IMG/VR virus record: IMGVR_UViG_2541047885_000002
Location: 1 to 26,915 of that record
Strand: one strand, 5' to 3'
From: a virus
Lineage: Duplodnaviria; Heunggongvirae; Uroviricota; Caudoviricetes
DNA: 26,915 nucleotides
Shown here: piece by piece, positions 9,385 through 26,915 of the stretch
How the letters are laid out: each line of letters begins with the position of its first letter
Numbering within the stretch: position 1 is the first letter of the stretch
Made by a program: the position numbers and the translations under genes
Notes under the pieces: model-generated
Seen by the model: the letters and a program-made list of their open reading frames with translations, nothing else
What the model was told of the DNA's origin: nothing
The model's database searches: none

Positions 9385-9410
9385 AACAATCTCCTTATGG
9401 GAAGTAAAAA

Positions 9411-9938: not shown

Positions 9939-11350
9939 CCTCGATTAATCCTATCTTTGAACCGTTCATTGAGGCGCATCGCTACAAAGTCGCCAAAGGC
10001 GGTCGAGGTAGCGGTAAGTCATGGGCAATTGCGAGGCTTCTTGTTGAAGCGGTGCGTCGGCAGCCTGTGCGTATTCTTTGCGCTCGTGAGCTGCAAAACA
10101 GTATCAGCGATTCGGTAATCAGGTTGCTTGAAGACACCATCGAGCGTGAAGGGTATTCGGCTGAGTTTGAAATTCAGCGTTCAATGATTCGTCATCTCGG
10201 AACGAATGCTGAATTCATGTTCTACGGCATCAAAAACAACCCGACGAAGATTAAATCGCTCGAAGGCATTGATATCTGCTGGGTGGAAGAAGCGGAAGCG
10301 GTAACAAAGGAATCGTGGGATATCCTGATACCAACCATCCGCAAGCCGTTTTCCGAAATATGGGTGAGCTTTAACCCGAAGAACATCCTCGACGATACCT
10401 ATCAGCGATTCGTCGTAAATCCTCCTGATGATATTTGTCTGCTGACGGTGAACTACACCGACAACCCGCACTTTCCTGAAGTTCTCCGTCTGGAGATGGA
10501 AGAGTGTAAACGCAGAAATCCGACACTGTATCGTCACATCTGGCTTGGTGAGCCAGTAAGCGCAAGTGATATGGCAATCATCAAACGTGAATGGCTTGAA
10601 GCCGCAACCGATGCGCACAAGAAACTCGGATGGAAAGCGAAAGGCGCGGTTGTCTCTGCGCATGACCCGTCAGATACAGGGCCAGATGCTAAAGGTTACG
10701 CATCGCGTCACGGTTCGGTGGTTAAGCGCATTGCCGAAGGCCTGCTGATGGACATCAACGAGGGTGCTGACTGGGCTACTTCGCTGGCGATTGAAGACGG
10801 CGCTGACCACTACCTGTGGGATGGCGATGGTGTCGGTGCCGGGCTACGCAGACAGACAACGGAAGCGTTCTCCGGTAAGAAAATCACCGCCACGATGTTC
10901 AAGGGCAGCGAATCGCCATTCGATGAAGATGCGCCTTATCAGGCCGGGGCATGGGCTGATGAAGTCGTGCAGGGCGACAACGTTCGCACTATTGGCGATG
11001 TGTTCCGCAATAAGCGAGCGCAATTCTATTACGCGCTGGCTGACAGGCTGTATCTGACATATCGGGCGGTTGTTTACGGTGAGTATGCAGACCCCGACGA
11101 CATGCTGAGTTTCGACAAAGAAGCGATAGGCGAGAAGATGCTGGAGAAGCTGTTTGCAGAACTGACGCAGATTCAGCGCAAATTCAATAACAACGGGAAG
11201 CTGGAGCTTATGACCAAGGTCGAAATGAAGCAGAAGCTCGGTATTCCATCTCCTAACCTGGCTGATGCGCTGATGATGTGTATGCATTGCCCGGAGTCGG
11301 CTGCGAAACCCGACTATTCCAGTTACTCAATTCCTTGTGGTGTAGGTTGA
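9935..11350 (+). CDS. terL: Terminase large subunit
   Basis: Walker A KGGRGSGKS near the N-terminus, acidic nuclease-domain residues, 471 aa, ATGA overlap with terS. Confidence 0.9.
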   Translation: MTSINPIFEPFIEAHRYKVAKGGRGSGKSWAIARLLVEAVRRQPVRILCARELQNSISDSVIRLLEDTIEREGYSAEFEIQRSMIRHLGTNAEFMFYGIKNNPTKIKSLEGIDICWVEEAEAVTKESWDILIPTIRKPFSEIWVSFNPKNILDDTYQRFVVNPPDDICLLTVNYTDNPHFPEVLRLEMEECKRRNPTLYRHIWLGEPVSASDMAIIKREWLEAATDAHKKLGWKAKGAVVSAHDPSDTGPDAKGYASRHGSVVKRIAEGLLMDINEGADWATSLAIEDGADHYLWDGDGVGAGLRRQTTEAFSGKKITATMFKGSESPFDEDAPYQAGAWADEVVQGDNVRTIGDVFRNKRAQFYYALADRLYLTYRAVVYGEYADPDDMLSFDKEAIGEKMLEKLFAELTQIQRKFNNNGKLELMTKVEMKQKLGIPSPNLADALMMCMHCPESAAKPDYSSYSIPCGVG

Positions 11351-11351
11351 T

Positions 11352-13550
11352 ATGGCAGAAAAAAAGATGACTGACTGGCATCGCAAGGTGCTGTGCAACT
11401 TTGATAATGCCTGGTCAGCAACGCAGGATATGCGTGAGCAGATTATTGAGGCTCAACGTTTCGTCCGGGTATCCGGCGCACAGTGGGAAGGCAGCACAAA
11501 CGCTGGTTACTCATTTGATGAAGGCAGGTTTGAGCATTACCCGCGCTTTGAACTGAATAAGATTGCCCGTGAATGTGATCGCATCATTGGCGAGTATCGA
11601 CAGAATCGCATCAGCGTTAAATTCAGGCCGAAGGACGATAAGGCATCGGAAGCGTTAGCCGAAAAGATGAACGGCAAATTCCGCGCTGACTATCAGGAAA
11701 CATCCGGTGGCGAAGCGTGTGATAACGCATTTGATGATGCTGTAACGGGCGGATTCGGTTGTTTCCGCATGTGTGCCGATTACGAAGATGAAATGGATCC
11801 GAGTAACGATCAGCGACGCATCAGTCTTCTTCCTGTTTACGACCCAGCGACATGCGTCTTCTTCGATCAGGACAGCAAGCAATATGACCGATCTGATGCT
11901 ATGTGGGCTATGGAAATGTTTTCCATGACGCCTAAAGCGTTCGAGGCTGAATACCCTGATTCCATCGCGGCAAGCCTTTCTCGTGATAACACTGGTACTC
12001 AGTATGACTGGTCAACGCCTGATGCCATCTATGTTGGACGCTACTACGAAGTTCGCGTAGAGAAGGTGAAGCTCACAGCATGGCGTAACCCTGTTAGCGG
12101 AGAAACGGCAATCTATGATGAAGATCAAATCAAAGATATTGTCGACGAGCTGACCGATGGCGCATTCGAACTGATTGGTGAGCGGACAGTGAAGAAACGC
12201 CGAGTTTATTGCGGTCTTCTGTCTGGCGCTGAATGGCTGGAAGAACCGAAGCGTATTCCGGGCGAACATATTCCTCTCATCCCGGTATATGGGCGTCGTT
12301 CATTTGTTGATAATCAGGAGCGAATCGAAGGCCACGCAGCAAAAGCGATGGATGCACAGCGTCTTGAGAACCTGATGGTTTCCATGATTGCAGATAACGC
12401 TACTCAGGCTGGCGGCGATGGCATTCCTGTAGTTGATGTTGACATGATTCCTGGTCCTCTTGCCACTCATTGGGCGGAGCGCAACAAAAAGCGCCCGGCG
12501 TTCCTGCCGATGGTCAGTCTGAAAAACAAAAACGGAGATATTACTGCGCAGGCTCAGGTCAGCAGTTATACACCTCCGACACAAATGCCTCCTGCTCTTG
12601 CCGGGCTATTGCAGTACACCGGAACGGCTATTCAGCAAATTACAGGTGCGTCGCAGCTTGAGAATATGCCGAGCAACGTCGCTACCGATACCGTTGATAG
12701 CATCTTTAACCGGATGGACACGCAGTCCTATATCTACATGGACAACATGGCTAAATCCATGCGCCGCGCTGGCGTCGTGTGGCTTTCTATGGCGCGTGAA
12801 GTCTATGGCAGCGATACGCCGATGCGTATCGTTAATGAGGACGGCAGCGATGACGTGGCGCTGATGACTGGTGAAGTGGTTGACCGTCAGACAGGGCAGG
12901 TTATCGCTCTTAACGACCTTTCGCAGGGTAACTATGAAGTGACTGTCGATGTTGGTCAGTCGTTCGCTACTCGCCGTGATGCAACGGTTAAGTCGTTACT
13001 TTCCATGCTGGCACTTATCCCACCGGGAACGCAGAAGCACGACCTTGTATCGTCGATGATTCTCGACAATATGGACGGCGAAGGGATGGACGACCTTAAA
13101 GAATACAACCGCAATCAGTTGCTTCTGTCTGGCGTTATCAAGCCGAGAACGCCTGAAGAACAGCAGATGGTTGAACAGGCGAAACAACAACAGGCCAGTC
13201 AGCCAGATCCGGCTATGGTTGCAGCGCAAGGTCAGCTTCTTGCAGGTCAGGCTGAATTGCAGAAAGCGCAGAACGAACAGGCAGCCATTCAGGTTAAAGC
13301 ATTCCAGGCACAGACTGATGCTCAGGTTGCAGCGGCAAACGTTGTGAAAATCCTCGCATCTGCCGATAGCCAGCAGAAATCTGATATCCGCGAGGCTCTG
13401 AAACTGCTCGGACAGTTCCAGCAACAGCAAGGAGACAATGCCCGTGCTGATGCAGAGCTTGTCCTGAAAAGTCAGGCACAGGGTCATGCGCAGCGAATGG
13501 ACATCAGCAGCATCCTGCAAAAATCAACCCAGCAACAATCACAGCAGTAA
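11352..13550 (+). CDS. Portal protein (P22 gp1-like)
   Basis: 732 aa with GEHIPLIPVYG and a long Gln-rich C-terminal helical region (PDPAMVAAQGQLLAGQAELQKAQNEQ...QRMDISSILQ) matching what I recall of the P22 gp1 barrel. Confidence 0.93.
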   Translation: MAEKKMTDWHRKVLCNFDNAWSATQDMREQIIEAQRFVRVSGAQWEGSTNAGYSFDEGRFEHYPRFELNKIARECDRIIGEYRQNRISVKFRPKDDKASEALAEKMNGKFRADYQETSGGEACDNAFDDAVTGGFGCFRMCADYEDEMDPSNDQRRISLLPVYDPATCVFFDQDSKQYDRSDAMWAMEMFSMTPKAFEAEYPDSIAASLSRDNTGTQYDWSTPDAIYVGRYYEVRVEKVKLTAWRNPVSGETAIYDEDQIKDIVDELTDGAFELIGERTVKKRRVYCGLLSGAEWLEEPKRIPGEHIPLIPVYGRRSFVDNQERIEGHAAKAMDAQRLENLMVSMIADNATQAGGDGIPVVDVDMIPGPLATHWAERNKKRPAFLPMVSLKNKNGDITAQAQVSSYTPPTQMPPALAGLLQYTGTAIQQITGASQLENMPSNVATDTVDSIFNRMDTQSYIYMDNMAKSMRRAGVVWLSMAREVYGSDTPMRIVNEDGSDDVALMTGEVVDRQTGQVIALNDLSQGNYEVTVDVGQSFATRRDATVKSLLSMLALIPPGTQKHDLVSSMILDNMDGEGMDDLKEYNRNQLLLSGVIKPRTPEEQQMVEQAKQQQASQPDPAMVAAQGQLLAGQAELQKAQNEQAAIQVKAFQAQTDAQVAAANVVKILASADSQQKSDIREALKLLGQFQQQQGDNARADAELVLKSQAQGHAQRMDISSILQKSTQQQSQQ

Positions 13551-13640
13551 TTAACCAATAACGTGCAATGGCTGTCTTTATGAGGCCTGGCACCCTATTG
13601 CCTTCCGATGGGCTGAACATCGAGTAAACAGGGGTAACAA

Positions 13641-14537
13641 ATGGACCAGATGGCAGAAAACACACCAGAAGTTGAAATAGAAACCGATACATCAGAGCAG
13701 ATTCCTGATGATGTCGAACTGGCTGAAGAAGTCGAAACAGAAGATGGCAGTGAGTCCTCCGGCAATGATGCAGAGGAAGCTACTGAAACTGATGACGACG
13801 AATCAGAACAGGAATTCTACTTTGGTGACGAAAAGCTGGATTCGCCAACCAGCGAAGATGGCGCTGAGCATGGACTGGTAAAACACCTGCGCAAGACGAT
13901 TAAAGAGAAAGACCGCGAGCTGAAAGAGCTGATGCGTCAGTCCCAGAAACCCGTCGAGCAGCAGCCGGTAATCACTCAACCACCGCGAATGCCAAAACTG
14001 GATGATGAGGACATCGGTTTCGATGAAGAAATCTACCAGCAACGCATGGCTAAGTGGGCGGAGGACAACGGCAAATACCAGGAGCAAGTACGAGAGCGGA
14101 AACGAGAGGAAGAGGCGCGTACCGCAACGCTTCAGCAGAAAGCAGCCAATTACATGCATAGAGTAAAAGCACTGAAAGTGGCTGGTTACCAGGATGCAGA
14201 GCAGGCTGTACGCGAAGATGTTCCTGTTCACATTCAGGACATGATCCTTCTTGAGTCAGAGAAGCCGGAAATCGTTGTTCTGGCACTCGGTCGCAACGCT
14301 GAACTGCGCAAGCAACTGGCAGAAGCTACCAACCCCGTAGCAATTGGTCGTCTGCTGGAACGTATCGAATCGAAGGCCAGAATCATGCCAAAAGCAAAAA
14401 CCACGGCAGCCACAACCCCGACAGTTAAGGGGAGCAACGGCGCAGTAATCAATAACCTCGACAAACTTCTCGAAAAAGCGCGCGACACCGGTGATTACAC
14501 CGAATACCGGGCGGCGAAGAACAAAGCTAAAAAATAA
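13641..14537 (+). CDS. Scaffolding protein (P22 gp8-like)
   Basis: Position between portal and coat; highly acidic N-terminus, coiled-coil middle, basic helix-turn-helix-like C-terminus (DTGDYTEYRAAKNKAKK); SD AGGGG. Confidence 0.8.
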   Translation: MDQMAENTPEVEIETDTSEQIPDDVELAEEVETEDGSESSGNDAEEATETDDDESEQEFYFGDEKLDSPTSEDGAEHGLVKHLRKTIKEKDRELKELMRQSQKPVEQQPVITQPPRMPKLDDEDIGFDEEIYQQRMAKWAEDNGKYQEQVRERKREEEARTATLQQKAANYMHRVKALKVAGYQDAEQAVREDVPVHIQDMILLESEKPEIVVLALGRNAELRKQLAEATNPVAIGRLLERIESKARIMPKAKTTAATTPTVKGSNGAVINNLDKLLEKARDTGDYTEYRAAKNKAKK

Positions 14538-14557
14538 TCCATCGGAGCTAAATACCT

Positions 14558-15817
14558 ATGTCTAACCAGTTAACAAAAGACCTCGAAATCCTCTTTGAGA
14601 GCGTCATTGATAGTTTTGAGGCGTCCAATGTCGTTTCCCGCGAGTGCAGCAAGTTCCGACCGGGCGACATTGAAATGCAGCGCGCTGGCGACGTTGTTTA
14701 TCGCCCTCAGGGCTACCACCTGAAAACCGTGAGCGGACTTGATCTGACTTCGGCCACTGCAAACTCACTCGTTCAGCGTCAGGTGCCTGCTCGCTTCCGC
14801 GAGCCAGAGAACGTCATCTACGAACTGGACGCAAAAGAAATGCGCGATCCGTGGCACAAAGAGCAGGCTGGCAAGGCGGCGGGTCGCCAGTTGGCGGCGT
14901 GGGTTGATAACATGATCGTCGATGAGGTGGTCGCTCGCTCCACCAACGTGGTCACCATTAAATCGGCGTCCACCGGTAGCACTCTCGGCGAAGAACTCTG
15001 GAACGCATCGGCTGACGTTGATGCAATGATGCTGTCCATTGGTGTGCCTCAGGGTGGTCAGCGCAAGGCGTTCTACAACCCGTTCAACTACAAAGACCTG
15101 GCTAAGGAGCTTGGCTCTCGCGCATATGCGGTCGGTGCAACTCTGACAGCCTATGAGAAAGCTCAGATTCCACCTGTGGCATCCTTCGACAGTTTCCGCG
15201 TTGATTATGCTGGCGCAATGAAGGCTGGTTCAGCTACCGCTGTAACTCTCGGCGGCGCAGTAAAACACAAAGTTACCGCGATGGATTCCAACGGCGCGCC
15301 TACCGATAACCGCCAGGGTGACATCACCGTATCCACTGCTGGCGTACTGGCTGTCGGCGATGCATTCACTATCGCAGGCGTTAACAGTGTCCACATGATC
15401 AAGAAGGTGGATACAGGTAAGCCGCAGGTATTCCGCGTCCTGGCAGTAAATGGCACTACCGTTACCATCAGCCCGAAAATTCTGCCACCAGACAACGCGG
15501 ATAAGGCGTCTATTCCTTACCAGAACGTTACCGCCAATCCGGTGGCAAACGCGGCGATCACCATCCTCAACAAGAAGGCTGCGGCTTCCAACATCTTCTT
15601 CGCTGAGGGTTCTGTTGAGCTGATGTATGGCAAGTTGGCATTCCCTACCGGCCAGGGTCCGCAGGTTATGACCGCAACGACCGAGCAGGGTGCGACCATC
15701 ATCATGGCTTACCAATTCGACGCTAAATCTGGCAAAACGTGGACTCGCTTCACCACGCTGGCTGGCGCAAGCGTACTGGTCCCGGAATTCACCGGCCTGG
15801 TACTGGCTAACCAGTAA
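14558..15817 (+). CDS. Major capsid (coat) protein
   Basis: 419 aa directly after the scaffold gene and followed by a strong terminator; assignment by synteny and size. Confidence 0.8.
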   Translation: MSNQLTKDLEILFESVIDSFEASNVVSRECSKFRPGDIEMQRAGDVVYRPQGYHLKTVSGLDLTSATANSLVQRQVPARFREPENVIYELDAKEMRDPWHKEQAGKAAGRQLAAWVDNMIVDEVVARSTNVVTIKSASTGSTLGEELWNASADVDAMMLSIGVPQGGQRKAFYNPFNYKDLAKELGSRAYAVGATLTAYEKAQIPPVASFDSFRVDYAGAMKAGSATAVTLGGAVKHKVTAMDSNGAPTDNRQGDITVSTAGVLAVGDAFTIAGVNSVHMIKKVDTGKPQVFRVLAVNGTTVTISPKILPPDNADKASIPYQNVTANPVANAAITILNKKAAASNIFFAEGSVELMYGKLAFPTGQGPQVMTATTEQGATIIMAYQFDAKSGKTWTRFTTLAGASVLVPEFTGLVLANQ

Positions 15818-15821
15818 TCCA

Positions 15822-15848
15822 AGGGGCTTCGGCCCCTCTTTTTTTTGG
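15822..15848 (+). terminator. Intrinsic terminator after the coat gene
   Basis: AGGGGC (15822-15827), loop TTCG, GCCCCT (15832-15837), then CTTTTTTTTT. Confidence 0.85.
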
Positions 15849-15856
15849 AGATCGAA

Positions 15857-16045
15857 ATGTCTCAAATCATGCTTTATAAGCCGGGAACGATGATCACCTG
15901 CGGCCCCCACTCGCTGGATTACATCATCGTTGATGACGAAGAAGTTAAATCTCACCTGAAAAAAGGCTGGGTAAAAACTCCTGAAGAAACCGCAACGAAG
16001 CAAAAAGTGGCTAAGGCGGAAGAAGATGGCGAAAACGAAGGGTGA
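15857..16045 (+). CDS. Hypothetical small protein
   Basis: ATG 6 nt after SD GGAG; 62 aa; between the coat and gp4-like genes. Confidence 0.5.
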   Translation: MSQIMLYKPGTMITCGPHSLDYIIVDDEEVKSHLKKGWVKTPEETATKQKVAKAEEDGENEG

Positions 16046-16487
16046 TCTCGTTCTAAAGGCTTTACGAAAAGCCGGGCTGTATTCCAATGCCACGTTGACA
16101 GATGCTGACCCTCAGGCAATTGAAGATGCCATTAATGACCTCGAAGACATGATGGCAGCATGGCAGGCTAAAGGTATCGAGCTTGGATATCAGTTTGCTG
16201 ATACAGAAAACGGCATCATGCCGTTACCTGACGATGATTCAGGTATCCCTGCATGGGCAAATGATGGCGTCGCTTTGAAACTCGCTGTGCAAGTGTGCAT
16301 GGATAACGTCATTCAGCCGTCAGACGCTCTCCTTACCGCTGCTGACAGTGCATATCAAACAATCTGTATCGCTTTAACCAAAATACCACCACTTGAGCGA
16401 CGAAATGACATGCCTCGCGGGGCGGGGTTAAAAAGCGCGTTTACGTGGAATCGGTTTTACATCGAGAAAGATGATCCGAGTACGTGA
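16026..16487 (+). CDS. Tail adaptor / head-completion protein (P22 gp4-like)
   Basis: Starts MAKTKGDLVLKALRKAGL...ATLTDADPQAIEDAINDLEDMMAAW, which resembles what I recall of gp4; correct position before the gp10 homologue. Confidence 0.75.
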   Translation: MAKTKGDLVLKALRKAGLYSNATLTDADPQAIEDAINDLEDMMAAWQAKGIELGYQFADTENGIMPLPDDDSGIPAWANDGVALKLAVQVCMDNVIQPSDALLTAADSAYQTICIALTKIPPLERRNDMPRGAGLKSAFTWNRFYIEKDDPST

Positions 16488-16496
16488 GGTGAATAA

Positions 16497-17915
16497 ATGC
16501 CGATTCAGCAACTTCCGCTTATGAAAGGTGTCGGCAAAGACTTTCGAAACGCCGACTATATCGACTATCTGCCAGTGAATATGCTGGCTACGCCCAAAGA
16601 AATACTCAACAGCAGCGGATATCTTCGCTCATTCCCGGGCATTGCCAAACGTTCTGATGTGAACGGCGTATCGCGGGGCGTCGAGTACAACATGGCGCAG
16701 AATGCTGTTTATCGCGTATGTGGTGGTAAGCTGTACAAAGGAGAAAGTGAAGTCGGTGACGTCGCCGGAAGTGGTCGCGTATCAATGGCGCATGGTCGAA
16801 CATCACAGGCGGTAGGCGTTAATGGTCAACTGGTCGAATACCGCTATGATGGCACGGTTAAAACCGTCTCAAACTGGCCTACAGACAGCGGATTCACGCA
16901 GTATGAGTTAGGCTCAGTCCGCGACATTACGCGCTTGCGTGGGCGTTATGCGTGGTCAAAAGACGGCACTGATTCATGGTTTATCACTGACCTTGAAGAC
17001 GAATCGCATCCTGACCGTTACAGCGCACAATATCGCGCAGAATCTCAGCCGGACGGCATCATCGGCATCGGAACATGGCGAGACTTCATCGTCTGCTTTG
17101 GCTCATCGACGATTGAATATTTCTCCCTGACGGGCGCAACCACTGTTGGTGCCGCTTTGTATGTCGCCCAGCCATCGTTGATGGTGCAAAAAGGAATCGC
17201 CGGAACCTACTGCAAAACGCCGTTCGCCGATTCGTATGCGTTCATCAGCAATCCGGCAACAGGTGCGCCGTCTGTGTATATCATCGGCTCCGGTCAGGTA
17301 TCACCAATAGCCAGCGCGAGCATTGAGAAAATCCTCCGCTCCTACACTGCTGATGAACTGGCTGATGGTGTGATGGAATCGTTGCGGTTTGATGCTCATG
17401 AGTTGCTGATTATTCACCTGCCGCGCCACGTCCTCGTGTACGACGCATCTTCAAGCGCCAATGGTCCGCAATGGTGTGTACTGAAAACAGGCCTGTATGA
17501 CGATGTGTACCGCGCTATCGACTTCATTTACGAAGGCAACCAAATTACGTGCGGCGATAAGCTTGAATCGATGACAGGGAAATTGCAGTTCGACATCAGC
17601 AGCCAGTATGGGCTACAGCAAGAACACCTGTTGTTTACACCACTCTTCAAAGCTGAGAACGCCAGATGTTTTGATCTGGAAGTTGAATCATCGACTGGTG
17701 TCGCTCAGTACGCTGACCGCCTGTTCCTCTCTGCAACCACTGACGGCATCAATTGGGGAAAAGAGCAGATGATTGAGCAGAATGAACCGTTCGTTTACGA
17801 CAAACGCGTTTTGTGGAAGCGAGTAGGGCGCATCAGGAAAAATGTCGGCTTCAAATTGCGCGTTATCACGAAGTCACCTGTCACTCTGTCTGGCGCTCAG
17901 ATAAGGATCGAGTAA
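16497..17915 (+). CDS. Tail hub protein (P22 gp10-like)
   Basis: 472 aa, the length I recall for P22 gp10, starting [49 protein letters not shown]. Confidence 0.9.
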
Positions 17916-18616
17916 TGGCTGATTCGAATCTCAACACCCCTGTTATTGTGCAGGCGACGCGGCTCGATACATCAATCCTTCCACGCAATATATTCAGCCA
18001 GTCTTACCTGCTGTATGTCATTAATCAGGGGGCTGATGTCGGCGCAATTGCCGGGAAGGCAAATCAGGCTGGTCAGGGCGCTTACGATGCTCAGGTGAAA
18101 AACGATGAACAGGACGTCGAACTGGCAGATCACGATTCAAGAATCACCGCAAACACAAAAGCGATAAATCTCCTTGAGGTCAGGTTAACAACCGCCGAAG
18201 GGAAGATAGTCGTACTGCGTAGCGATGTTGATTACTTGCTGGATGAGGTTATCGATATTCAGGCGCATCTGGTCACTGTTGACAAAAGACTGGATGGCGT
18301 AGAAAGCGATGTATCTGACATTAAGAGTGATTACGTATCGAAAACCGTAACAGAATCGCAGTCTCTTGCGTCACCGCTGGATGTAAAAACATCATATTCA
18401 GTTGATGGAATTCAGGTTGTTGGAGCAAGAAATACCGGATGGACTGCAGCCACAGGTACGCCACTTCTTGGCTCATTCAACGCTAACCAGTCATACACTG
18501 TCGGCACTACGTACACACAATCCGAAGTCGCAGCTCTCGCTACAGGTTTGCAGCAGGCGCGGCAGCGTATTCTGGCGCTTGAAACAGCACTTAGATTACA
18601 TGGGCTGATTGACTGA
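17915..18616 (+). CDS. Tail needle (P22 gp26-like)
   Basis: 233 aa; [73 protein letters not shown] and the C-terminal ...LRLHGLID match the gp26 pattern. Confidence 0.9.
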
Positions 18617-19071
18617 TGATTACATTCAAACCAACGCGAAACATCGACCTGATAGAAGCCGTGGGAAATCACCCCGACATTATCGCTGGTAGCAACAACG
18701 GTGATGGATACGACTACAAGCCTGAATGCCGTTACTTTGAGGTTAACGTGCACGGTCAGTTTGGCGGCATTGTTTACTATCAGGAGATTCAGCCGCTTAC
18801 ATTCGATTGCCACGCCATGTACCTGCCAGAGGTTCGCGGATTCAGCAAGGAAATCGGGCTGGCGTTCTGGCGATACATTCTGACTAACACCACCGTTCAG
18901 TGCGTCACATCGTTCGCTGCACGCAAATTCCGCCACGGGCAGATGTACTGCGCAATTATTGGCCTTAAGCGTGTAGGAACCATCAAGAAATACTTCAAAG
19001 GCGTGGATGACGTGACTTTTTACAGCGCCACACGCGAAGAACTAATCGACTTCCTGAATCACGGGAGATAG
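18616..19071 (+). CDS. Probable gp14-like assembly/ejection-associated protein
   Basis: Assigned by position only, between the needle and gp7 homologues; 151 aa. Confidence 0.5.
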   Translation: MITFKPTRNIDLIEAVGNHPDIIAGSNNGDGYDYKPECRYFEVNVHGQFGGIVYYQEIQPLTFDCHAMYLPEVRGFSKEIGLAFWRYILTNTTVQCVTSFAARKFRHGQMYCAIIGLKRVGTIKKYFKGVDDVTFYSATREELIDFLNHGR

Positions 19072-19073
19072 CC

Positions 19074-19766
19074 ATGTTATATGCATTTAAGCTGGGCAGA
19101 AAACTGCGCGGCGAGGAACCTTATTGCCCTGAAAAAGGCGGGAAAGGTGGCAGTTCTGATAAAAGTGCAAAGTATGCCGCAGAAGCTCAGAAGTATGCCG
19201 CAGACCTGCAAAATCAGCAGTTCAATACCATCATGAACAACCTGAAGCCGTTTACTCCTCTGGCTGGGAAGTATGTCGGCAGCCTTGAGAACTTATCGTC
19301 TCTGGAAGGGCAAGGTCAGGCACTTAACCAGTATTACAACTCTCAGCAGTACAAAGATCTTGCTGGTCAGGCTCGCTATCAGAGTCTGGCTGCAGCGGAA
19401 GCAACAGGTGGATTGGGTTCCACCGCAACCAGTAATCAGTTAGCAACAATCGCACCAACGCTTGGTCAGCAATGGCTATCTGGACAAATGAACAATTACA
19501 ACAACCTGGCAAATATCGGTCTTGGCGCTCTTCAGGGACAGGCAAACGCCGGGCAAACATATGCCAACAACATGAGTCAGATTTCACAGCAAAGCGCGGC
19601 GCTGGCGGCGGCAAACGCCAACCGACCGTCAGCATTGCGGCAGGGTGTTAGTGGTGCTGCATCCGGTGCGCTTTTGGGTGGTGGTATAGCCAGTGCTCTC
19701 GAGCTATCAACTCCGTGGGGTGCTGGTATCGGTGCTGGTCTTGGTCTGCTTGGCTCGTTGTTTTAA
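19074..19766 (+). CDS. Ejection protein (P22 gp7-like)
   Basis: MLYAFKLGRKLRGEEPYCPEKGGKGGSSDKSAKYAAEAQKYAADLQNQQFNTIMNNLKPF..., Gly-rich C-terminus ending LGLLGSLF; matches gp7 as I recall it. Confidence 0.88.
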   Translation: MLYAFKLGRKLRGEEPYCPEKGGKGGSSDKSAKYAAEAQKYAADLQNQQFNTIMNNLKPFTPLAGKYVGSLENLSSLEGQGQALNQYYNSQQYKDLAGQARYQSLAAAEATGGLGSTATSNQLATIAPTLGQQWLSGQMNNYNNLANIGLGALQGQANAGQTYANNMSQISQQSAALAAANANRPSALRQGVSGAASGALLGGGIASALELSTPWGAGIGAGLGLLGSLF

Positions 19767-19776
19767 GGGGTAATCA

Positions 19777-21120
19777 ATGGCTACGTGGCAACAGGGTATT
19801 AATTCTGGTGGTTTTCTGGCTGGAATTGGTGCGCAAAATGAGAATGCGCCAAAGGCAAGCGACATTAACGCAACGCTTGGTCTGATTCGCGAAAACAATG
19901 AACTGGCTCGCTCAGGTGCAAATAACGTTGGTCTGACCGCGTTACGTGGTCTGGCTGGAGTTGCTGATATTTATAAGCAGCAGCAACAGCAGGAGCGTAA
20001 AGCGGCATTCCAGAAAGGTTATGCGGATGCTTATGCGTCCGGCGACAGGGAGCAGATGCGTAATCTTATTACAGCATTCCCCGAAGAGTTTGAGGAAGTC
20101 CGTAAAGGCATGGGGTATGTCGATGACGCCCAGCGGGATGATTTTGGCAATCTGGCGCTCAAGGCTCAGGTAGCTTCGTCGCTTGGTCCGGGTGCATTTG
20201 GCAGGTTTATGATGGATAGCGAAAAGGAGATGCGTCGTTTAGGTATCCCTCCAGAAACTATTGCTGAAATGCAGGTTAATGACCCGCAGGGCTTCCAGCA
20301 CTTTGCAGGTAATCTGGCACTATTTTCTCTCGGCCATGAGAAGTATTTCGATATCAAAGATCAAATGGAGGGGCGTCGACTTGAGCAAGGGCGATTGGAT
20401 GAAAGCATCCGTCAGGCTGACATGGAGAATGCGAGAGGATGGGCAAATATCCAGAACGCTCAACTAGACAGGGCTCAGCGGGCACAAATGCACTCAGATG
20501 AGATGGGATTGAAGCTAATGGAGCTGGGGCAAAAAGGTAAGCCGTCAGCAGACTTAATTAAGGGATTAAATTCTGACATTACCAATTTTGGCAAAAATTA
20601 TAACTCTGTCAGAGCGGCGGCAAACTCTCTGCAAGCCCTTAGCAAGGTAAATACTGGCGCTGCCCAACTTGGGATTATCTTTAATTACATGAAGTCTCTC
20701 GACCCTCAGTCAGTTGTTCGCGAAGGTGAACAGGTTCAGGTCATGCGCTCTGATGGCATATGGGGGCAGATAAAAGGATATGTAGACCAGCTTAATGCAG
20801 GGAATGGCTTGTCACAGGAAGCGAGGGATAACATTGTCAACGCAGCAAAAATTAACGCCAACGCTATGGGGCAGCAGTTTAACCAGCAGGTAGACGAATA
20901 TCTGGATACGTATGGAGATACTATTCCTCAGGGGCTGAAAAAAAGTTTAGGGAGAAGGAAGGCCAAGCTATTTGACGATGTCCCAGCGCAGCCTACACCA
21001 CAAGGTGGTAATGGGCAGACAAAAGCTGCGCCAAGTGGGATATCAGAAGGCGCGACGGCAACGAACCCTAAAACTGGTCAGAAACTCATTTATAGGAACG
21101 GACAATGGCAACCGATGTAG
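19777..21120 (+). CDS. Ejection protein (P22 gp20-like)
   Basis: 447 aa, by position and size between the gp7 and gp16 homologues. Confidence 0.75.
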   Translation: MATWQQGINSGGFLAGIGAQNENAPKASDINATLGLIRENNELARSGANNVGLTALRGLAGVADIYKQQQQQERKAAFQKGYADAYASGDREQMRNLITAFPEEFEEVRKGMGYVDDAQRDDFGNLALKAQVASSLGPGAFGRFMMDSEKEMRRLGIPPETIAEMQVNDPQGFQHFAGNLALFSLGHEKYFDIKDQMEGRRLEQGRLDESIRQADMENARGWANIQNAQLDRAQRAQMHSDEMGLKLMELGQKGKPSADLIKGLNSDITNFGKNYNSVRAAANSLQALSKVNTGAAQLGIIFNYMKSLDPQSVVREGEQVQVMRSDGIWGQIKGYVDQLNAGNGLSQEARDNIVNAAKINANAMGQQFNQQVDEYLDTYGDTIPQGLKKSLGRRKAKLFDDVPAQPTPQGGNGQTKAAPSGISEGATATNPKTGQKLIYRNGQWQPM

Positions 21121-23324: not shown

Positions 23325-23747
23325 CTAACCATCGGATAGGCGCTCTTTTGCCTCTTCGATTAAATCAGCACAAATAAAAGGTAGCTCTGATGAAACAACT
23401 TCCCAGCCAGATTTTTTAACAACTTCATTTAGCCACTCTTCTCTATCGCGAGTTCCTCTCCTTTTTTCCAAGAGGAAAATTTGCGAGTAAATTTGAATGG
23501 CTTTTTCGTTTAGATAAAACGCATATTGTCTGTTTAAAACAACATCTGCAAGTATATTAACGCCTTCTTGAGTTTTTGCCGCTACATCTGGCTCTACCCC
23601 CATACGAATAGATAGGTCGCATAACTCAACGAATGCACGCTCTTCAGCGTCGTGTTTCATTTTGTAAAAATGTGAAGCTAATTTTTGTGTTTCGGCAAGT
23701 TCCGCCCTTAATTTTTTTATCTTGCTTCTCGTTAATATGCCAAACAC
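23325..23747 (-). CDS. Hypothetical protein, visibly AT-rich gene (accessory)
   Basis: GTG start 5 nt after a strong SD AAGGAGG, giving 140 aa; the track's ATG at 23822 has no SD and is disfavoured. N-terminus charged and probably helical. No family recognised. Confidence 0.55.
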   Translation of the reverse strand: MFGILTRSKIKKLRAELAETQKLASHFYKMKHDAEERAFVELCDLSIRMGVEPDVAAKTQEGVNILADVVLNRQYAFYLNEKAIQIYSQIFLLEKRRGTRDREEWLNEVVKKSGWEVVSSELPFICADLIEEAKERLSDG

Positions 23748-23812
23748 ACCAACCTCCTTAGTTTTGAGCAGGATACCAGATGATAATGTGTAGTTGGAGT
23801 AGCGCGGTTGTA

Positions 23813-23902
23813 ATGCAAGCATTTTGTTTTGGTTTTATGCTTGCTTGTATGTGTGTACAGTGTATATAATGCAAGCATACATCACAACAAAGGTGCTTGC
23901 AT
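23813..23902. promoter_or_regulatory. Divergent promoter region with four copies of a near-palindromic 10-bp motif ATGCWWGCAT, plus a sigma70 promoter for the rightward gene
   Basis: Motif copies at 23813-23822, 23837-23846, 23869-23878 and 23893-23902. Promoter TTGCTT (23841-23846), 18-bp spacer, TATAAT (23865-23870). Motif copies overlap the -35, the -10 and the RBS/start region. Confidence 0.65.
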
Positions 23903-23903
23903 T

Positions 23904-24872
23904 ATGACTGAAAAGAAAAGTGGCGAAGGGAAAGCTAAGGGCGGGATCGCTCGCGCAAAGTCGCTGACTAAAGAGCAGCGTTCTGAAATAGCAAAGAAAG
24001 CAGCTGCTGCAAGATGGAAAAGTAAGATTCTCAGGGCAACTCATCGTGGTAACTTTTTAGATGATTTTGGCATTGATGCTGAATGTTATGTACTGGATGA
24101 CGAGTCGAAAACTGTCGTTGTTACGAAAACTGGATTATCTCAGTTGCTAGGGATTGGTGAACATGCCAGGGATTTAGATCAACTGCTTGGCGCTCAGTAT
24201 ATGAGCAAATACCGAGATCTAGAATTGCAGCGAAAAATGGAAAATCCCTATAAATTTCAACTTACTTCGAAGTCTAAAACCGTTCATCAAGCGTTAGGTT
24301 ATGACATTACAGCAATTGTTGATATTGGTAGGGCACTAATAGAAGCCAAAGATAATGACGATCTACCACAATCACGGTTAAAGGCAGCCGCCGCAGCACA
24401 GAGACTTATTAATGCCTCCGCTAAGGCGGGAATTAAGGGGGTTGCGTATGCGCTTGCTGGTTATCGTCCAGAAGTTCAGGCTGTCATTGACGAGTTCAAA
24501 GCGTTTGTTCGTGAAGAGGCTCGTCAATATGAAAAGGAATTTCCAGATGAGCTATACGAGGAGTGGTATCGACTGTACGGCCTGAATAGGCCAGAGAAAG
24601 GACGGCCTATTCGTTTTGGGCAGCTAACCAACATGCAGATATACACCCCGCTAGCAAAGAGTAAAGGTAAAATCCTTGAACAGATTCGAGCCAGCCGAGA
24701 CGAGAACGGAAAACAATCTGATAAGTTGCATCTGTTCCTTTCTGAAATTGGTGTCAAGGCTTTGCGTCAGCATATCGGTAAGCTTCTTGGTGTCGCAGCG
24801 ATGAGTGAGACAAGAGAAGAATACGAAAAAGGAATAGAAAAGGTTTTCGGAAGAATGAAACCAGAAATCTAA
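23904..24872 (+). CDS. Hypothetical protein, possibly P63C-domain family
   Basis: 322 aa from ATG 23904. N-terminal basic motif KAKGGIARAKSLTKEQRSEIAKKAAAARW followed by ILRATHRGNFLDDFGIDAECYVLDD, which I recall as typical of P63C-domain phage proteins (memory only). Followed by a terminator. Confidence 0.5.
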   Translation: MTEKKSGEGKAKGGIARAKSLTKEQRSEIAKKAAAARWKSKILRATHRGNFLDDFGIDAECYVLDDESKTVVVTKTGLSQLLGIGEHARDLDQLLGAQYMSKYRDLELQRKMENPYKFQLTSKSKTVHQALGYDITAIVDIGRALIEAKDNDDLPQSRLKAAAAAQRLINASAKAGIKGVAYALAGYRPEVQAVIDEFKAFVREEARQYEKEFPDELYEEWYRLYGLNRPEKGRPIRFGQLTNMQIYTPLAKSKGKILEQIRASRDENGKQSDKLHLFLSEIGVKALRQHIGKLLGVAAMSETREEYEKGIEKVFGRMKPEI

Positions 24873-24877
24873 TTATG

Positions 24878-24902
24878 AAACCCACCGTCAGGTGGGTTTT
24901 TT
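24878..24902. terminator. Hairpin terminator between convergent genes (probably bidirectional)
   Basis: AAACCCACC (24878-24886), loop GTCA, GGTGGGTTT (24891-24899), with T-run to 24902; A-rich on the opposite strand. Confidence 0.8.
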
Positions 24903-24927
24903 ATAAGGAGTAATCATGATTTACCCA

Positions 24928-25464
24928 TCAAACAACCCACCAGTTTGCCTGATTGGATACCAGCCTTGCAGTTTTTATGGAATTAATTATGCCATGCTCA
25001 AGAGCCTTGTTAGCATCCAAAATGGTCGAGTCTGCTATCAGGGATGCCCACCTAATATGGGTTCCGATGTCGATATTGAACGTCTCAACGAAGCGATCAA
25101 GATCGTTATCGAGGCATTTCCCGTACTCTCTCAATCTGGCATGGTCGGCGGCTGGGGTGGCAAAGCCCCATAATAGAGGATGTAACAGGAATCTTGATAA
25201 TGGGTTTGCGAAACGTTCTGAGCCAGCCAGGAAAACGATATTAGCTATGGATTCAACATTGCTTATGTTGTGAGTTCTAACGGTAACAGGGAGTGACTTA
25301 AGAAAGTTATACGCAGTAAAGCCAGCGGCAGTTTCCCCTCCCTGACTTGATATATGGATATTTAATTCAGTTGCGCCTTGAGATAATGCGGTGAGACAGT
25401 GGTTCTGAAGTTGCCCAACAGTGGCAGTGTTAACGGGGCATAAGAAATGAATTGTGTGCAGCAT
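24928..25464 (-). CDS. ClpP-family (S14-like) serine peptidase homologue, translationally coupled to the mnt-like gene
   Basis: 178 aa aligning by eye to E. coli ClpP: SQGGETAAG vs SPGGVITAG, catalytic-Ser region ESIANIVFLAG vs ASMGAFLLTAG, His in RFLLHPL vs RVMIHQPL, and an Asp in the IADSTILD region. Its ATG overlaps the mnt stop (TAATG). Confidence 0.65.
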   Translation of the reverse strand: MLHTIHFLCPVNTATVGQLQNHCLTALSQGATELNIHISSQGGETAAGFTAYNFLKSLPVTVRTHNISNVESIANIVFLAGSERFANPLSRFLLHPLLWGFATPAADHARLREYGKCLDNDLDRFVETFNIDIGTHIRWASLIADSTILDANKALEHGIINSIKTARLVSNQANWWVV

Positions 25465-25712
25465 TATTTTTCATCCTTACCATACATGGTCTTTAGCGTC
25501 TCAAGCAGCGCCTCTTTGAATTTGTCAGCTTCTTGCTGAGCAAATGACTCAACTGACTTTGGCGACCTATCTTCATCAATCGCGGCTTGCAAAATCATGA
25601 CGATCTCGGAGTTAACAGAGCGACCATTTTTTGATGCTCTGACAGCAAGAGCCTCGCGTAAAGATTCAGGGATTCTTACCGTAGTTGGAGAAATTGACAC
25701 ACCCTTTGCCAT
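25464..25712 (-). CDS. mnt: Mnt-like ribbon-helix-helix repressor
   Basis: 82 aa with RHH core VRIPESLREALAVRASKNGRSVNSEIVMILQAAI (the NGRSVNSEI signature of the Arc/Mnt family) and a helical C-terminus, same architecture and length as P22 Mnt; divergent from the arc-like gene. Confidence 0.8.
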   Translation of the reverse strand: MAKGVSISPTTVRIPESLREALAVRASKNGRSVNSEIVMILQAAIDEDRSPKSVESFAQQEADKFKEALLETLKTMYGKDEK

Positions 25713-25732
25713 ATCACACCTTTGGTATTCAA

Positions 25733-25744
25733 TTTGATATCAAA
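25733..25744. promoter_or_regulatory. Perfect 12-bp palindrome TTTGATATCAAA in the mnt-arc intergenic region (candidate operator)
   Basis: Lies 21 bp upstream of the mnt start and about 80 bp upstream of the arc-like start, where the P22 immI operators lie; a TTGACT -35-like hexamer is at 25762-25767. Confidence 0.5.
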
Positions 25745-25826
25745 GTGTATGCAAAAAAATTTTGACTAGATATACTCACTTTGCTATCTTTTGTATTCTA
25801 AAAGAGTTGTTTGTGTGGAGGGTAAC

Positions 25827-25979
25827 ATGGAGAAAGAAATAAGTAAGATTTTGGTAAGGATGCCGCAGTCGTTAAAGGATGCTATCGGTAGCAGGGCAAA
25901 GGAAGAGTGCAGGTCGTTTAACTCAGAGGTTATCAAGCGCCTGATAGACAGCCTGAAGAGAGAGGGGATAACGGTATGA
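25827..25979 (+). CDS. arc: Arc-like ribbon-helix-helix repressor
   Basis: 50 aa [50 protein letters not shown], the P22 Arc pattern and size; SD GGAGGG 5 nt upstream. The track's longer ORF from 25791 is rejected. Confidence 0.75.
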   Translation: MEKEISKILVRMPQSLKDAIGSRAKEECRSFNSEVIKRLIDSLKREGITV

Positions 25980-26179
25980 GTAAAGAATGTTGTTTCTGCG
26001 GCATTAGCGAATCAGACGCTGATCAAACATACATTTACTCTAAAGAAACAGGTCGGATGCTGTGTAGTGACTGCGTGTTGGACATCATAAGATACAAGCA
26101 TCTTGGATGTTCTGCCAGCATTAGCAATATAGGTGAAGTATACGAAGGGAAAGATATAACTGATAGAGCAGAAAGTTGA
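25976..26179 (+). CDS. Small Cys-rich (zinc-ribbon-like) protein
   Basis: 67 aa with CCFCG ... CSDC; ATGA overlap with the arc-like stop; between arc and the antirepressor gene. Confidence 0.5.
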
Positions 26180-26241
26180 AGCCCCAACTGCTGGAACAGT
26201 CAGGGCTTCGGTATCAACAAATCGGCTTAGGAAATATTGAC

Positions 26242-26698
26242 ATGAAAAGTATAGCAAAGGCACAAAACGATTTCACCATCTTCAAATTTGGCGACAGTGA
26301 AATTCGCGTCATTAACAAGTGCGGCGAGCCGTGGTTTGTAGCTAAAGATGTTTGTGATGCTTTAGCTTTGACTAACTCACGCAAGGCGCTTACTGCACTT
26401 GATGACGATGAAAAGGGAGTAACTTTAAGTTACACCCTTGGTGGTGAGCAGAATCTAAGCATTGTGAGCGAATCAGGTATGTATACATTGGTTCTGCGCT
26501 GCCGCGATGCAGTCAATAAAGGTTCAGTCCCGCACAAATTCCGCAAGTGGGTAACAGCAGAAGTTCTGCCTTCAATTCGCAAACATGGCGAGTATGTAAA
26601 AGGAAAGAAAACCACTGTTGAGGAAAGAACACCGCTACGCGATGCAGTAAACATGCTGGTAGGAAAGAAAGGACTTCGCTATGACGATGCATACAATA
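26242..26698 (+). pseudogene. ant: Bro-N domain antirepressor (ant position), 3'-truncated by the IS insertion
   Basis: From ATG 26242: [60 protein letters not shown]...[14 protein letters not shown]...[17 protein letters not shown] is a typical Bro-N domain. The ORF runs into IS sequence at 26699. Confidence 0.8.
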
Positions 26699-26915
26699 TG
26701 AACCGCCCCGGGTTTCCTGGAGAGTGTTTTATCTGTGAACTCAGGCTGCCAGATCATCGTTTCCGATGGAAGCATAATAAGCTTTTTCTGCTTCTGCCGG
26801 AGGAGTATGGCCCAGCCTTTCCAGCAATCGTCGATTGTTATACCAGTCCACCCACGTGAGTGTGGCCAGTTCCACTTCTGCACGGTTTTTCCAGCTCTTA
26901 CGGTGTATTACCTCC
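26699..26915 (-). mobile_element. Right-hand end of a second copy of the same IS3-family element, inverted relative to the copy at the window start; the transposase 3' end is read on the minus strand
   Basis: 26699-26790 is the exact reverse complement of 1-92. The minus strand of 26741-26915 encodes ...[45 protein letters not shown]-stop, an IS3-family OrfB C-terminus. The element continues beyond the window. Confidence 0.8.

Follow-up and report, generated by a model that had tools for sequence, protein, structure and literature searches.

Two independently recombining genes between gene 16 and immI of a P22-like Escherichia coli prophage: a gene in the sieA slot and a P63C cassette with remote similarity to BstA

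Lambdoid prophages carry morons, which are insertions made up of a promoter, a gene and a terminator. In P22-like phages, the position after gene 16 is held by sieA, whose product is an inner-membrane protein with several predicted transmembrane helices and a conserved cytoplasmic motif, FxRYPxEAxxFNK, that stops P22-like phages from injecting their DNA (PMC10883804), and prophage BTP1 encodes BstA, an abortive-infection protein that blocks phage DNA replication and is accompanied by the self-immunity element aba (PMC8585504). Here we analyse a 26,915-nucleotide stretch of a P22-like E. coli prophage (hereafter the window), in which the interval between gene 16 and immI holds two divergent genes, a minus-strand gene for a 140-residue protein (orf140) and a plus-strand gene for a 322-residue P63C-domain protein, separated by a 156-bp spacer (Table 1). 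We propose that the two are independent accessory cassettes that became neighbours by chance at a gene 16/immI hot spot, with orf140 doing a sieA-like job and the P63C protein a BstA-like one, and we give this reading as a whole a probability of roughly 45%.

Table 1. Coordinates and base composition of the features discussed (window numbering)
Feature	Coordinates	Strand	GC	GC3	Details
Whole window			0.478
Packaging-to-gp20 block	9401-21100		0.507
Gene 16 (adjoining)			0.435	0.325
Gene 16, in part	from 21801		0.415
orf140	23325-23747	minus	0.388	0.31	soluble all-helical 140-aa protein, orphan family; sieA slot, convergent with gene 16
Slot-gene leader and RBS	23748-23810	minus			window copy (orf140) near-identical to those of L002 and L033 (both sieA)
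Intergenic spacer	23748-23903		0.391
O1	23811-23844				inverted repeat TAATGCAAGCAT (23811-23822) / ATGCTTGC (23837-23844), 14 nt between arms; right arm overlaps the -35
Candidate P63C promoter	23841-23870	plus			TTGCTT (23841-23846), 18 nt, TATAAT (23865-23870); read from sequence
O2	23866-23905				perfect 12-nt inverted repeat ATAATGCAAGCA (23866-23877) / TGCTTGCATTAT (23894-23905), 16 nt apart
P63C gene	23904-24872	plus	0.440	0.37	P63C-domain protein, 322 aa; ATG at 23904 after AAGGTG
Intrinsic terminator	24878-24903				AAACCCACC-GTCA-GGTGGGTTTTTT; -18.5 kcal/mol, z = -3.95
immI side	24905-26915		0.443

Two genes with separate histories

Both genes are real, and their boundaries agree with the original prediction. 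The minus-strand open reading frame extends over 23325-23822, and the true start of orf140 is the internal GTG that lies 5 nt after a strong Shine-Dalgarno sequence, AAGGAGG; all orf140 homologues begin at the aligned residues MFG, PGAP gives the same 423-nt coding sequence, and alleles show 18-20 synonymous versus 6-8 non-synonymous codon differences, a synonymous excess that marks a real gene under purifying selection. The same prediction had placed the pair where P22 carries sieA, at what is a sieA/immI accessory-gene hot spot, and this agrees both with the published position of sieA and with two related prophages (L002 and L033) in which sieA fills the post-gene-16 slot. Neither protein proved to be of characterised function, as had likewise been anticipated: a PADLOC search returned zero matches for orf140, the P63C protein and ST104 orf23, an NCBIfam search returned nothing for orf140 or the P63C protein, and the literature searched (for P63C and L0095) held no functional data on either family. 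A single weak PADLOC match to the P63C homologue of phage 933W was set aside as irrelevant. Structural or tail identity, the homology that would have spoken for ordinary virion genes, was rejected for both proteins after Pfam and PHROG profile searches gave no such match. An Rfam search of the gene pair likewise yielded nothing real, and a sub-threshold match to a miRNA family at 23806-23911 merely reflects a palindrome. A putative role in superinfection or defence was a reasonable lead and is plausible.

The pair had further been described as clearly more AT-rich than the flanking structural genes, which stands for the comparison with the head genes (GC of 0.39 and 0.44 versus 0.51) and falls for the immediate neighbours, from which the pair is not compositionally distinct. 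Because gene 16 (0.435) and the immI side (0.44) are equally AT-rich, the compositional case for joint horizontal acquisition fails; the lowest-GC 500-bp segment (0.384) is in fact located within gene 16, and the low-GC block therefore spans gene 16 to the end of the window.

The distribution of the two genes already contradicts the idea that they form a shared module. Of 5426 E. coli genomes, 326 carry the P63C cassette (window 23741-24905) and 30 carry orf140; only about five have them side by side, and at least 80% of the pair is covered at one place in only four records, so that each gene is far commoner without the other. In other prophages (L004-L020) orf140 lies beside different cargo or directly after mnt, lambdoid prophages L037-L039 carry an 80%-identical P63C gene just 3' of CI-like repressors, and elsewhere an identical P63C cassette adjoins sieA or a gene for a 134-residue protein in place of orf140. 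Furthermore, the E. coli matches and the locus alignment both place a recombination junction exactly at the orf140 start codon. The two genes are separate mosaic units, each recombining independently, and not a module gained together. It is true that they are adjacent and divergent, that the space between them contains the inverted repeat O1, some 65-100 bp ahead of the orf140 start codon, and that the same pair recurs in a handful of E. coli genomes (H14-H17 and L001). A co-acquired, co-functional divergent module for defence or lysogenic conversion under a shared control region, as originally envisaged, is nevertheless highly improbable in view of the many occurrences of each gene without its partner, the start-codon junction, the substitution of orf140 by sieA or the 134-residue gene next to an identical P63C cassette, and a composition that fails to single out the pair. 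The lack of co-inheritance also led us to reject a toxin-antitoxin pair.

A soluble protein in the sieA slot

By alignment, orf140 replaces exactly the coding sequence of sieA, the leader and ribosome-binding site in front of it being those of sieA loci. That leader is common to prophages with sieA, orf140 or other genes in the slot; it includes a candidate -10 element, TATCAT, at 23780-23785, and in the E. coli matches the shared module begins at window 23741-23745. Downstream of orf140, a hairpin was not significant (z = -0.8). As is the case for sieA, orf140 lies between gene 16 and the tailspike gene of a P22-like prophage, on the opposite strand. It always adjoins gene 16, in four genera and with at least four gp16 types, its frequency in E. 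coli approximates that of one sieA allele (30 versus 35 genomes), and other prophages have it at the end of the mnt operon.

The encoded protein shares with SieA its slot, strand, leader and ribosome-binding site and is of somewhat similar length (140 versus about 164 residues), but it differs in being acidic and soluble, with neither transmembrane helices nor sequence similarity to SieA. A 19-residue Kyte-Doolittle scan of orf140 peaks at 0.75 and stays below 1.6 in every window, whereas the SieA of L002 peaks at 2.58 and has 40 windows of 1.6 or more; the SieA motif, present in the L002 protein as FGRYPGEAKVFNK, is missing from orf140; and precomputed annotation assigns the SieA family PF26849 to the slot gene of L033 and to no orf140 homologue. 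Homology to SieA was rejected on the absence of a transmembrane segment and of the SieA motif. Pfam holds no family for orf140 or its 14 relatives, PDB sequence profiles gave only keratin and designed-protein noise, and the AlphaFold2 model (mean pLDDT 80; helices 2-49 and 60-95) is a generic helical hairpin that suggests no mechanism.

From its place behind the sieA leader and ribosome-binding site, and at the end of the mnt operon in other prophages, we infer that orf140 would be expressed in the lysogen and would do a sieA-like job, namely exclusion of, or defence against, incoming phage. It could not do so as the membrane protein SieA does, since it is a soluble cytoplasmic helical protein.

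Homologues of orf140 were also seen outside this setting, one of them (L007) in a non-phage chromosomal context and others in a tail-region island of a different phage type, and the slot region also gathers toxin-antitoxin-like cargo.

These contexts, the generic hairpin fold and the lack of similarity to any exclusion or defence protein would also suit a lysogen-expressed accessory protein with no part in superinfection, such as a regulator, an anti-defence factor or a modifier of host physiology, housed in a permissive slot. We consider this quite unlikely, given the exact exchange of orf140 for the sieA coding sequence behind one leader and the constant adjacency to gene 16 over diverse gp16 types and four genera.

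The P63C cassette and its half-sites

Profile searches assign the 322-residue protein to the P63C family, both by Pfam PF10546 (52.7 bits against a cut-off of 26.1, E = 6.8e-14, residues 199-286) and by phrog_2384 (E = 1.7e-104, residues 6-321). As judged from an AlphaFold2 model and the comparisons below, the protein comprises an N-terminal basic two-helix motif (approximately residues 10-39), a central alpha/beta region of putative Bro-N/KilA-N-like kind (approximately 40-190) and a helical P63C region (199-286 and beyond), and has homologues in more than 1,600 clusters at E <= 1e-5. PDB sequence profiles returned nothing for it at E <= 1. The basic motif, GGxARAxxLTxEQRSEIAKKAAAARW, spans about 30 residues and has no family match in Pfam, NCBIfam or the PHROGs function labels; as a DNA-binding module it would be previously undescribed.

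Four TGCAAGCA half-sites, arranged as O1 and O2, cover the candidate P63C promoter and the start codon; O2 extends across the -10 element and the Shine-Dalgarno sequence into the first two nucleotides of the ATG. The 26.9-kb window has three exact TGCAAGCA matches, each of them inside 23814-23901. The locus alignment shows no change in the half-sites from one context to another, whereas the spacers have diverged, and the -10 region is kept. A consensus promoter and terminator scan found no excess of sites over shuffled sequences and none between the genes; in its strict form it did not call the candidate promoter TTGCTT-18-TATAAT. At its other end, the cassette is bounded by the intrinsic terminator, which ends the P63C gene, faces a convergent ClpP-like gene and coincides with the point at which the E. 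coli cassette matches stop (window 24902-24905).

The same four-site layout is found in ST104 orf23, Pseudomonas phage Lodos, Gordonia phage Barco and metagenomic loci, and for ST104 the identity is 78% in the control DNA but about 30% in the protein. Half-sites occur at 16.6 per kb in the -150 to +20 region versus 0.75 per kb elsewhere; they accompany the gene in E. coli as well as in phages of Pseudomonas and Gordonia, they are found together with the N-terminal basic motif, and the two family members that lack the motif have none. We therefore suggest that the P63C protein may be a sequence-specific DNA binder whose basic N-terminal motif reads the TGCAAGCA half-sites. Since the half-sites cover both candidate promoter elements (-35 and -10) along with the Shine-Dalgarno sequence and start codon, such binding would repress P63C synthesis, and the 322-aa gene is probably a self-contained, self-regulating cassette of operators, promoter, gene and terminator.

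The inverted repeats could instead act as RNA. Read-through RNA covering 23806-23915 is predicted to fold at -45.8 kcal/mol (z = -7.0) with the Shine-Dalgarno sequence and AUG buried, a transcript that starts near 23877 is unstructured (-4.6 kcal/mol, z = +0.8), and nested pairing is predicted for L037 and L041 as well, as if the hairpin insulated the cassette from outside transcription. Mere complementarity would not, however, account for an identical 8-nt sequence in all four arms across phages of Enterobacteria, Pseudomonas and Gordonia; compensatory changes are absent, spacer pairing is lost in L037, and the half-sites co-occur with the N-terminal motif. A role as RNA in place of a protein operator is accordingly very unlikely in our estimate, though the two are not mutually exclusive.

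The cassette is dispensable and patchy among close relatives, and it moves between unrelated phage backbones and slots. Homologues lie directly 3' of repressors in ST104 (orf23), SI8 and Javan515, the 933W homologue sits in the nin region beside roi, in a lytic operon, and the copy in the window follows gene 16 rather than a repressor.

BstA, KilA-N-type regulators and morons as points of comparison

An hhalign comparison of the P63C and BstA profiles aligned 113 columns (BstA residues 30-162) with a probability of 59.5% and E = 9e-5, a signal obtained with a broadened P63C alignment and falling to a probability of 5-6% with a narrower one. The real score was 40.4, versus at most 20.2 in 25 controls that were reversed, unrelated or shuffled. 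Direct BLASTP and the narrow profile gave nothing significant against BstA, and hhalign found nothing beyond P63C residue 201 or BstA residue 162. The profile similarity to BstA is thus remote and confined to one domain. In keeping with this, precomputed annotation places the BstA C-terminal domain PF26567 on BstA homologues and only PF10546 on P63C homologues.

We propose that the P63C central domain may share ancestry with the KilA-N-like domain of BstA, and this putative kinship, together with the occurrence of P63C homologues in the same prophage slots as bstA, points to a BstA-like role as the most likely one. The P63C protein would then bind the DNA of superinfecting phages and abort their replication, and its operator DNA could serve as a self-recognition element comparable to aba.

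Foldseek searches of BFVD place the P63C protein mostly next to Bro-N, antirepressor-N, "repressor domain" and KilA proteins; Pfam Bro-N, KilA-N and Rha have no match in 35 P63C members at E <= 10. These structural neighbours fit an alternative in which the protein is a regulator, antirepressor-like, that tunes the phage's own lysis-lysogeny or early genes, its operators merely serving autoregulation; a DNA-binding domain of Bro-N/KilA-N type would then be coupled to a C-terminal module that binds a partner. Bro-N, KilA-N and Rha N-termini with shuffled C-terminal modules are typical of antirepressors and regulators, phrog_1136 combines a Rha-like N-terminus with a P63C-like C-terminus, the gene stands beside mnt/arc/ant here and beside roi in 933W, and the conserved operators can be taken as a sign of binding to its own gene. 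Such a regulator is less easily reconciled with a gene that is dispensable and patchy among close relatives, with an insulated cassette that shifts between unrelated backbones and slots, or with a recurrent place right after a repressor or beside an integrase, as is typical of lysogen-expressed accessory genes; moreover, an antirepressor with its own promoter in the lysogen would destabilise lysogeny. On balance, we regard this alternative as rather unlikely.

More ambitiously, P63C could represent a widespread BstA-like single-gene prophage defence family in phages of Proteobacteria, Actinobacteria and Firmicutes, with the N-terminal motif reading TGCAAGCA, the operators acting both as autorepressor site and as aba-like self DNA, and orf140 being a soluble exclusion or abortive-infection protein interchangeable with SieA. 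This extended scenario appears doubtful to us in its entirety. Should our main reading hold, one short region would yield two new candidate anti-phage genes. With orf140, the sieA expression cassette would exist in a version whose product is not a membrane protein, so that the slot would select for function over protein family; the P63C protein would be BstA-like in spite of its other C-terminal domain, extending the idea of a defence protein with cognate DNA self-immunity to more than 1,600 clusters, with 326 of 5426 E. coli genomes for this cassette alone. The conserved pairing of half-site and N-terminal motif is directly testable and would give a DNA-binding function to the basic motif. 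Should a defence role fail, the region would still present a well-defined case of start-codon-precise cassette exchange in P22-like prophages.

Set against BstA, the P63C protein is of similar size (322 versus 307 residues) and has a two-domain build, with a remote hhalign match between the family's central domain and the KilA-N-like domain of BstA. Some of its homologues are likewise found directly downstream of prophage repressors, its gene likewise forms a single-gene cassette with its own terminator, and a specific DNA element lies across the start codon in both. The two systems differ in the C-terminal domain (PF10546 in P63C, PF26567 in BstA), in the additional N-terminal basic motif of the P63C protein and in the form of the DNA element, which for BstA is a 63-bp element with CCCGCC direct repeats and here consists of four inverted half-sites over the promoter; bstA follows cI, whereas the P63C copy in the window follows gene 16. 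With the Bro-N, KilA-N and Rha proteins (P22 Ant, Roi and Rha), P63C shares a putative alpha/beta domain of DNA-binding type, N-terminal or central, followed by a variable C-terminal module, and phrog_1136 links the two groups; its own predicted operator array and insulated cassette set P63C apart. Finally, in common with lambdoid morons, the P63C cassette is self-contained with a terminator, present or absent between otherwise collinear prophages and lower in GC than the head genes, but it differs from them in its conserved, predicted autoregulatory operator array, which is kept across phyla.

Layout and composition of the prophage region

The sequence is from a P22-like (Lederbergvirus-type) prophage of E. 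coli, of which it makes up the right half, and near-identical DNA is carried by E. coli chromosomes and by phage vB_EcoP-611R6. It runs from the 3' end of the primase/helicase gene through the nin genes, Q and the lysis genes to the terminase, portal, scaffold, coat and ejection genes; the gene for a gene-16-type protein is followed by the pair under study and then by a ClpP-like gene, mnt, arc, a 67-aa ORF and ant. The original prediction of two diverging genes holds, both being present with a real divergent layout, while the distinctive composition claimed for them does not. Specifically, orf140 (GC 0.388), the spacer (0.391) and the P63C gene (0.440) are indeed AT-rich relative to the packaging-to-gp20 block of head genes (0.507), but AT-richness does not set the pair apart from its flanks, as gene 16 (0.435; GC3 0.325) and the immI side (0.443) are equally low and the 500-bp window of lowest GC falls within gene 16.

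The minus-strand reading frame extends back to 23822, but its actual start is GTG 23747, 5 nt downstream of AAGGAGG; this start is supported by the aligned MFG that begins all relatives and by the identical 140-aa CDS called by PGAP. Comparisons of orf140 alleles reveal 18-20 synonymous versus 6-8 non-synonymous codon changes.

Several further features were observed. The clp start overlaps the mnt stop at 25464, so that the immI region here carries a translationally coupled, lysogen-type mnt-clp operon, an arrangement also present in locus L040 and in E. coli GF66.2 (H18). The ant gene matches that of locus L019 across its first ~180 residues only and then runs into the apparent C-terminal end of an IS3-family transposase, suggesting that an insertion sequence has cut ant short and taken the place of the prophage's tailspike side. 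Finally, an HNH endonuclease gene of GC 0.41, lying between Q and the lysis genes, looks like a separate insertion.

Coordinates of the features discussed in the text
Feature	Position	Strand	Details
Q	4556-5074		
HNH endonuclease gene	5269-5781	+	
Rha-like regulator	7552-8073	+	
Gene-16-type protein gene	end at 23261		718 aa
orf140	23325-23747	-	140 aa
O1 inverted repeat	23811-23844		
O2 inverted repeat	23866-23905		perfect 12-nt arms
P63C gene	23904-24872	+	322 aa
Strong intrinsic terminator of P63C gene	24878-24903		z = -3.95
ClpP-like serine protease gene	within 24928-25712 (mnt-clp)	-	178 aa; PF00574 E = 4.3e-12
sar antisense RNA of P22 immI region	26174-26240	-	Rfam RF00262, 69 bits vs gathering score 43
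ant	within 26176-26915		
Apparent IS3-family transposase end	26741-26875	-	

Exchange of orf140 at the sieA slot

Of 5426 complete E. coli genomes, 326 match a 1.8-kb query spanning the pair. Nearly all of the matches run from window position 23741-23745 to 24902-24905 and thus take in the P63C gene together with its terminator and control region. Only 4 records cover 80% or more of the query at one place, and orf140 on its own is found in 30 genomes; the pair is not the co-acquired two-gene module of the original prediction, whose locus was nevertheless right and whose defence role is plausible. Beside an identical P63C cassette, the slot between gene 16 and immI is occupied by sieA in loci L002 and L033, by a 134-aa protein in phage 611R6, and by an unannotated 161-aa gene in L034 and L035. 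The orf140 relatives of E. coli, Serratia and Citrobacter prophages, in turn, are invariably next to gene 16, which comes in at least four gp16 sequence types, and have other cargo alongside; in some prophages orf140 is placed directly after mnt. The mnt-to-orf140 stretch contains a 199-aa gene and a YafO-family toxin (PF13957 E = 1.1e-11) in L008 (5684-7423), and a 140-aa gene and a 149-aa protein, SocA/Panacea-like as judged by eye alone, in L015 (4522-7423); such varied cargo identifies this stretch as a general hot spot for accessory and toxin-antitoxin genes.

In alignment A7, sieA and orf140 are preceded in the slot by the same 63 bp (23748-23810), ribosome-binding site and GTG included, so that the swap is confined exactly to the coding sequence; replacement of sieA precise to its start codon is a new observation. 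Published SieA criteria include membrane helices and an FxRYPxEAxxFNK motif (PMC10883804), both of which, when used to test orf140, are present in the L002 SieA and missing from orf140. The latter is instead modeled confidently by AlphaFold (mean pLDDT 80) as all-helical, with a long hairpin (2-49/60-95) and two short helices, and its family shares the conserved core motif ILSEVVLNRQYAFYLNExAIQ. This family is tiny: a search of 5.8 billion proteins gave five clusters, a profile search of 1.84 billion gave 14 representatives, and the 50,697 phage records searched contain no member. Within E. coli, orf140 is about as frequent as the L002 sieA allele (35 genomes), and we infer that it would be a lysogen-expressed, cytoplasmic protein selected for SieA's niche. 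A relative with 36% identity in Enterobacter sp. BIGb0383 (L007 7001-7420) has chromosomal neighbours, namely genes for a hydrolase, a cupin, a LysR regulator, an alcohol dehydrogenase and an ABC transporter, and phage genes were not detected near it in that locus. Other relatives (L022) sit in an accessory island adjoining genes that read as tape-measure-like in the ORF list, from which they appear to belong to a different phage type.

The P63C cassette and its putative operator array

The P63C protein falls into two families with no assigned function, PF10546 (E = 6.8e-14) and phrog_2384 (E = 1.7e-104), and its relatives at E <= 1e-5 number more than 1,680. In the searched literature both its family and that of orf140 are uncharacterised, and the functions proposed here for the two proteins are inferred. 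Upstream of the gene, TGCAAGCA or its complement occurs four times to form the inverted repeats O1 and O2, which overlap a candidate TTGCTT-18-TATAAT promoter, the Shine-Dalgarno sequence and the ATG; within the 26.9 kb of the window, the octamer is matched exactly three times, each time in this array. In Klebsiella-type lambdoid prophages the cassette lies directly downstream of CI-like repressors and encodes an 80% identical protein, with unchanged half-sites, diverged spacers and a terminator upstream of the half-sites. The same repeat layout precedes ST104 orf23, where the protein is ~30% and the control DNA 78% identical, as well as P63C relatives in Pseudomonas phage Lodos, Gordonia phage Barco and metagenomic loci, and in the DC1 and 933W homologues both the repeats and the N-termini are variant. 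Over 13 loci, half-sites occur at 16.6 per kb in the -150 to +20 interval versus 0.75 per kb elsewhere, and they are absent from Javan515 and SI8, the two members without the N-terminal basic motif. Such pairing of operators with the P63C N-terminal motif across phyla is new, and the motif would read the half-sites, with the protein repressing its own promoter.

The array could possibly have a second, insulating role at the RNA level, as read-through RNA across it is predicted to fold into a -45.8 kcal/mol hairpin that hides the start, a structure not predicted for the cassette's own transcript. The half-sites are, however, kept by sequence identity rather than covariation, which makes protein binding the more likely conserved constraint.

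Three observations concern individual relatives. In one Salmonella prophage (L034 ~4897-5001) a deletion takes out O1 and the promoter region, leaving O2 alone before an intact P63C gene. The annotated start of ST104 orf23 falls within operator half-site ATGCAAGCAC (L025 3917-3955), and alignment with relatives suggests a true start at an ATG ~36 nt downstream (MSDKESK...), overlapping the last half-site as in the window. Lastly, distant members share the motif VGIIALVDEATGYQ (broadened alignment A6; residues 173-190 of the window protein), in place of which the window's clade has AGIKGVAYALAGYRPE and has lost a conserved Asp-Glu pair; should these residues matter for function, activity may be different in the enterobacterial clade.

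Relation of the P63C protein to BstA and phage regulators

The AlphaFold model of the P63C protein (mean pLDDT 73; block means of 72-94 for residues 40-190) features a beta-beta-beta/alpha-alpha-alpha/beta-beta/alpha central domain followed by helices. The main rival reading is that of an antirepressor-like regulator, in line with phrog_1136, in which a Rha-like N-terminus is joined to a P63C-like C-terminus, and with the 933W homologue adjoining roi in the nin region. The window also encodes a Rha-like regulator; its match in phrog_1136 is to the N-terminal half and that of the P63C protein to the C-terminal half, which indicates that the P63C domain is a C-terminal module also fused to Rha-type N-termini.

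In BTP1, bstA lies just after the repressor, exactly the place of the P63C homologues ST104 orf23, SI8 and Javan515, and the P63C (A6) and BstA (A5) profiles were therefore compared. They align over 113 collinear columns (Prob 59.5%, E = 9e-5) covering BstA 30-162, its KilA-N-like domain (limits from PMC8585504), with a score of 40.4 versus at most 20.2 in reversed, unrelated and 20 column-shuffled controls, a remote link that is likewise new. The C-terminal half of BstA (PF26567) is unrelated to that of the P63C protein (PF10546), and membership of the BstA family is not supported. BstA blocks phage DNA replication, thereby aborting infection, and is counteracted by aba, a DNA element of 63 bp across bstA's own start codon (PMC8585504). 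The resemblance supports, as the leading hypothesis over the regulator alternative, that the P63C protein would work like BstA, and the P63C array occupies a place analogous to that of aba but differs from it in structure.
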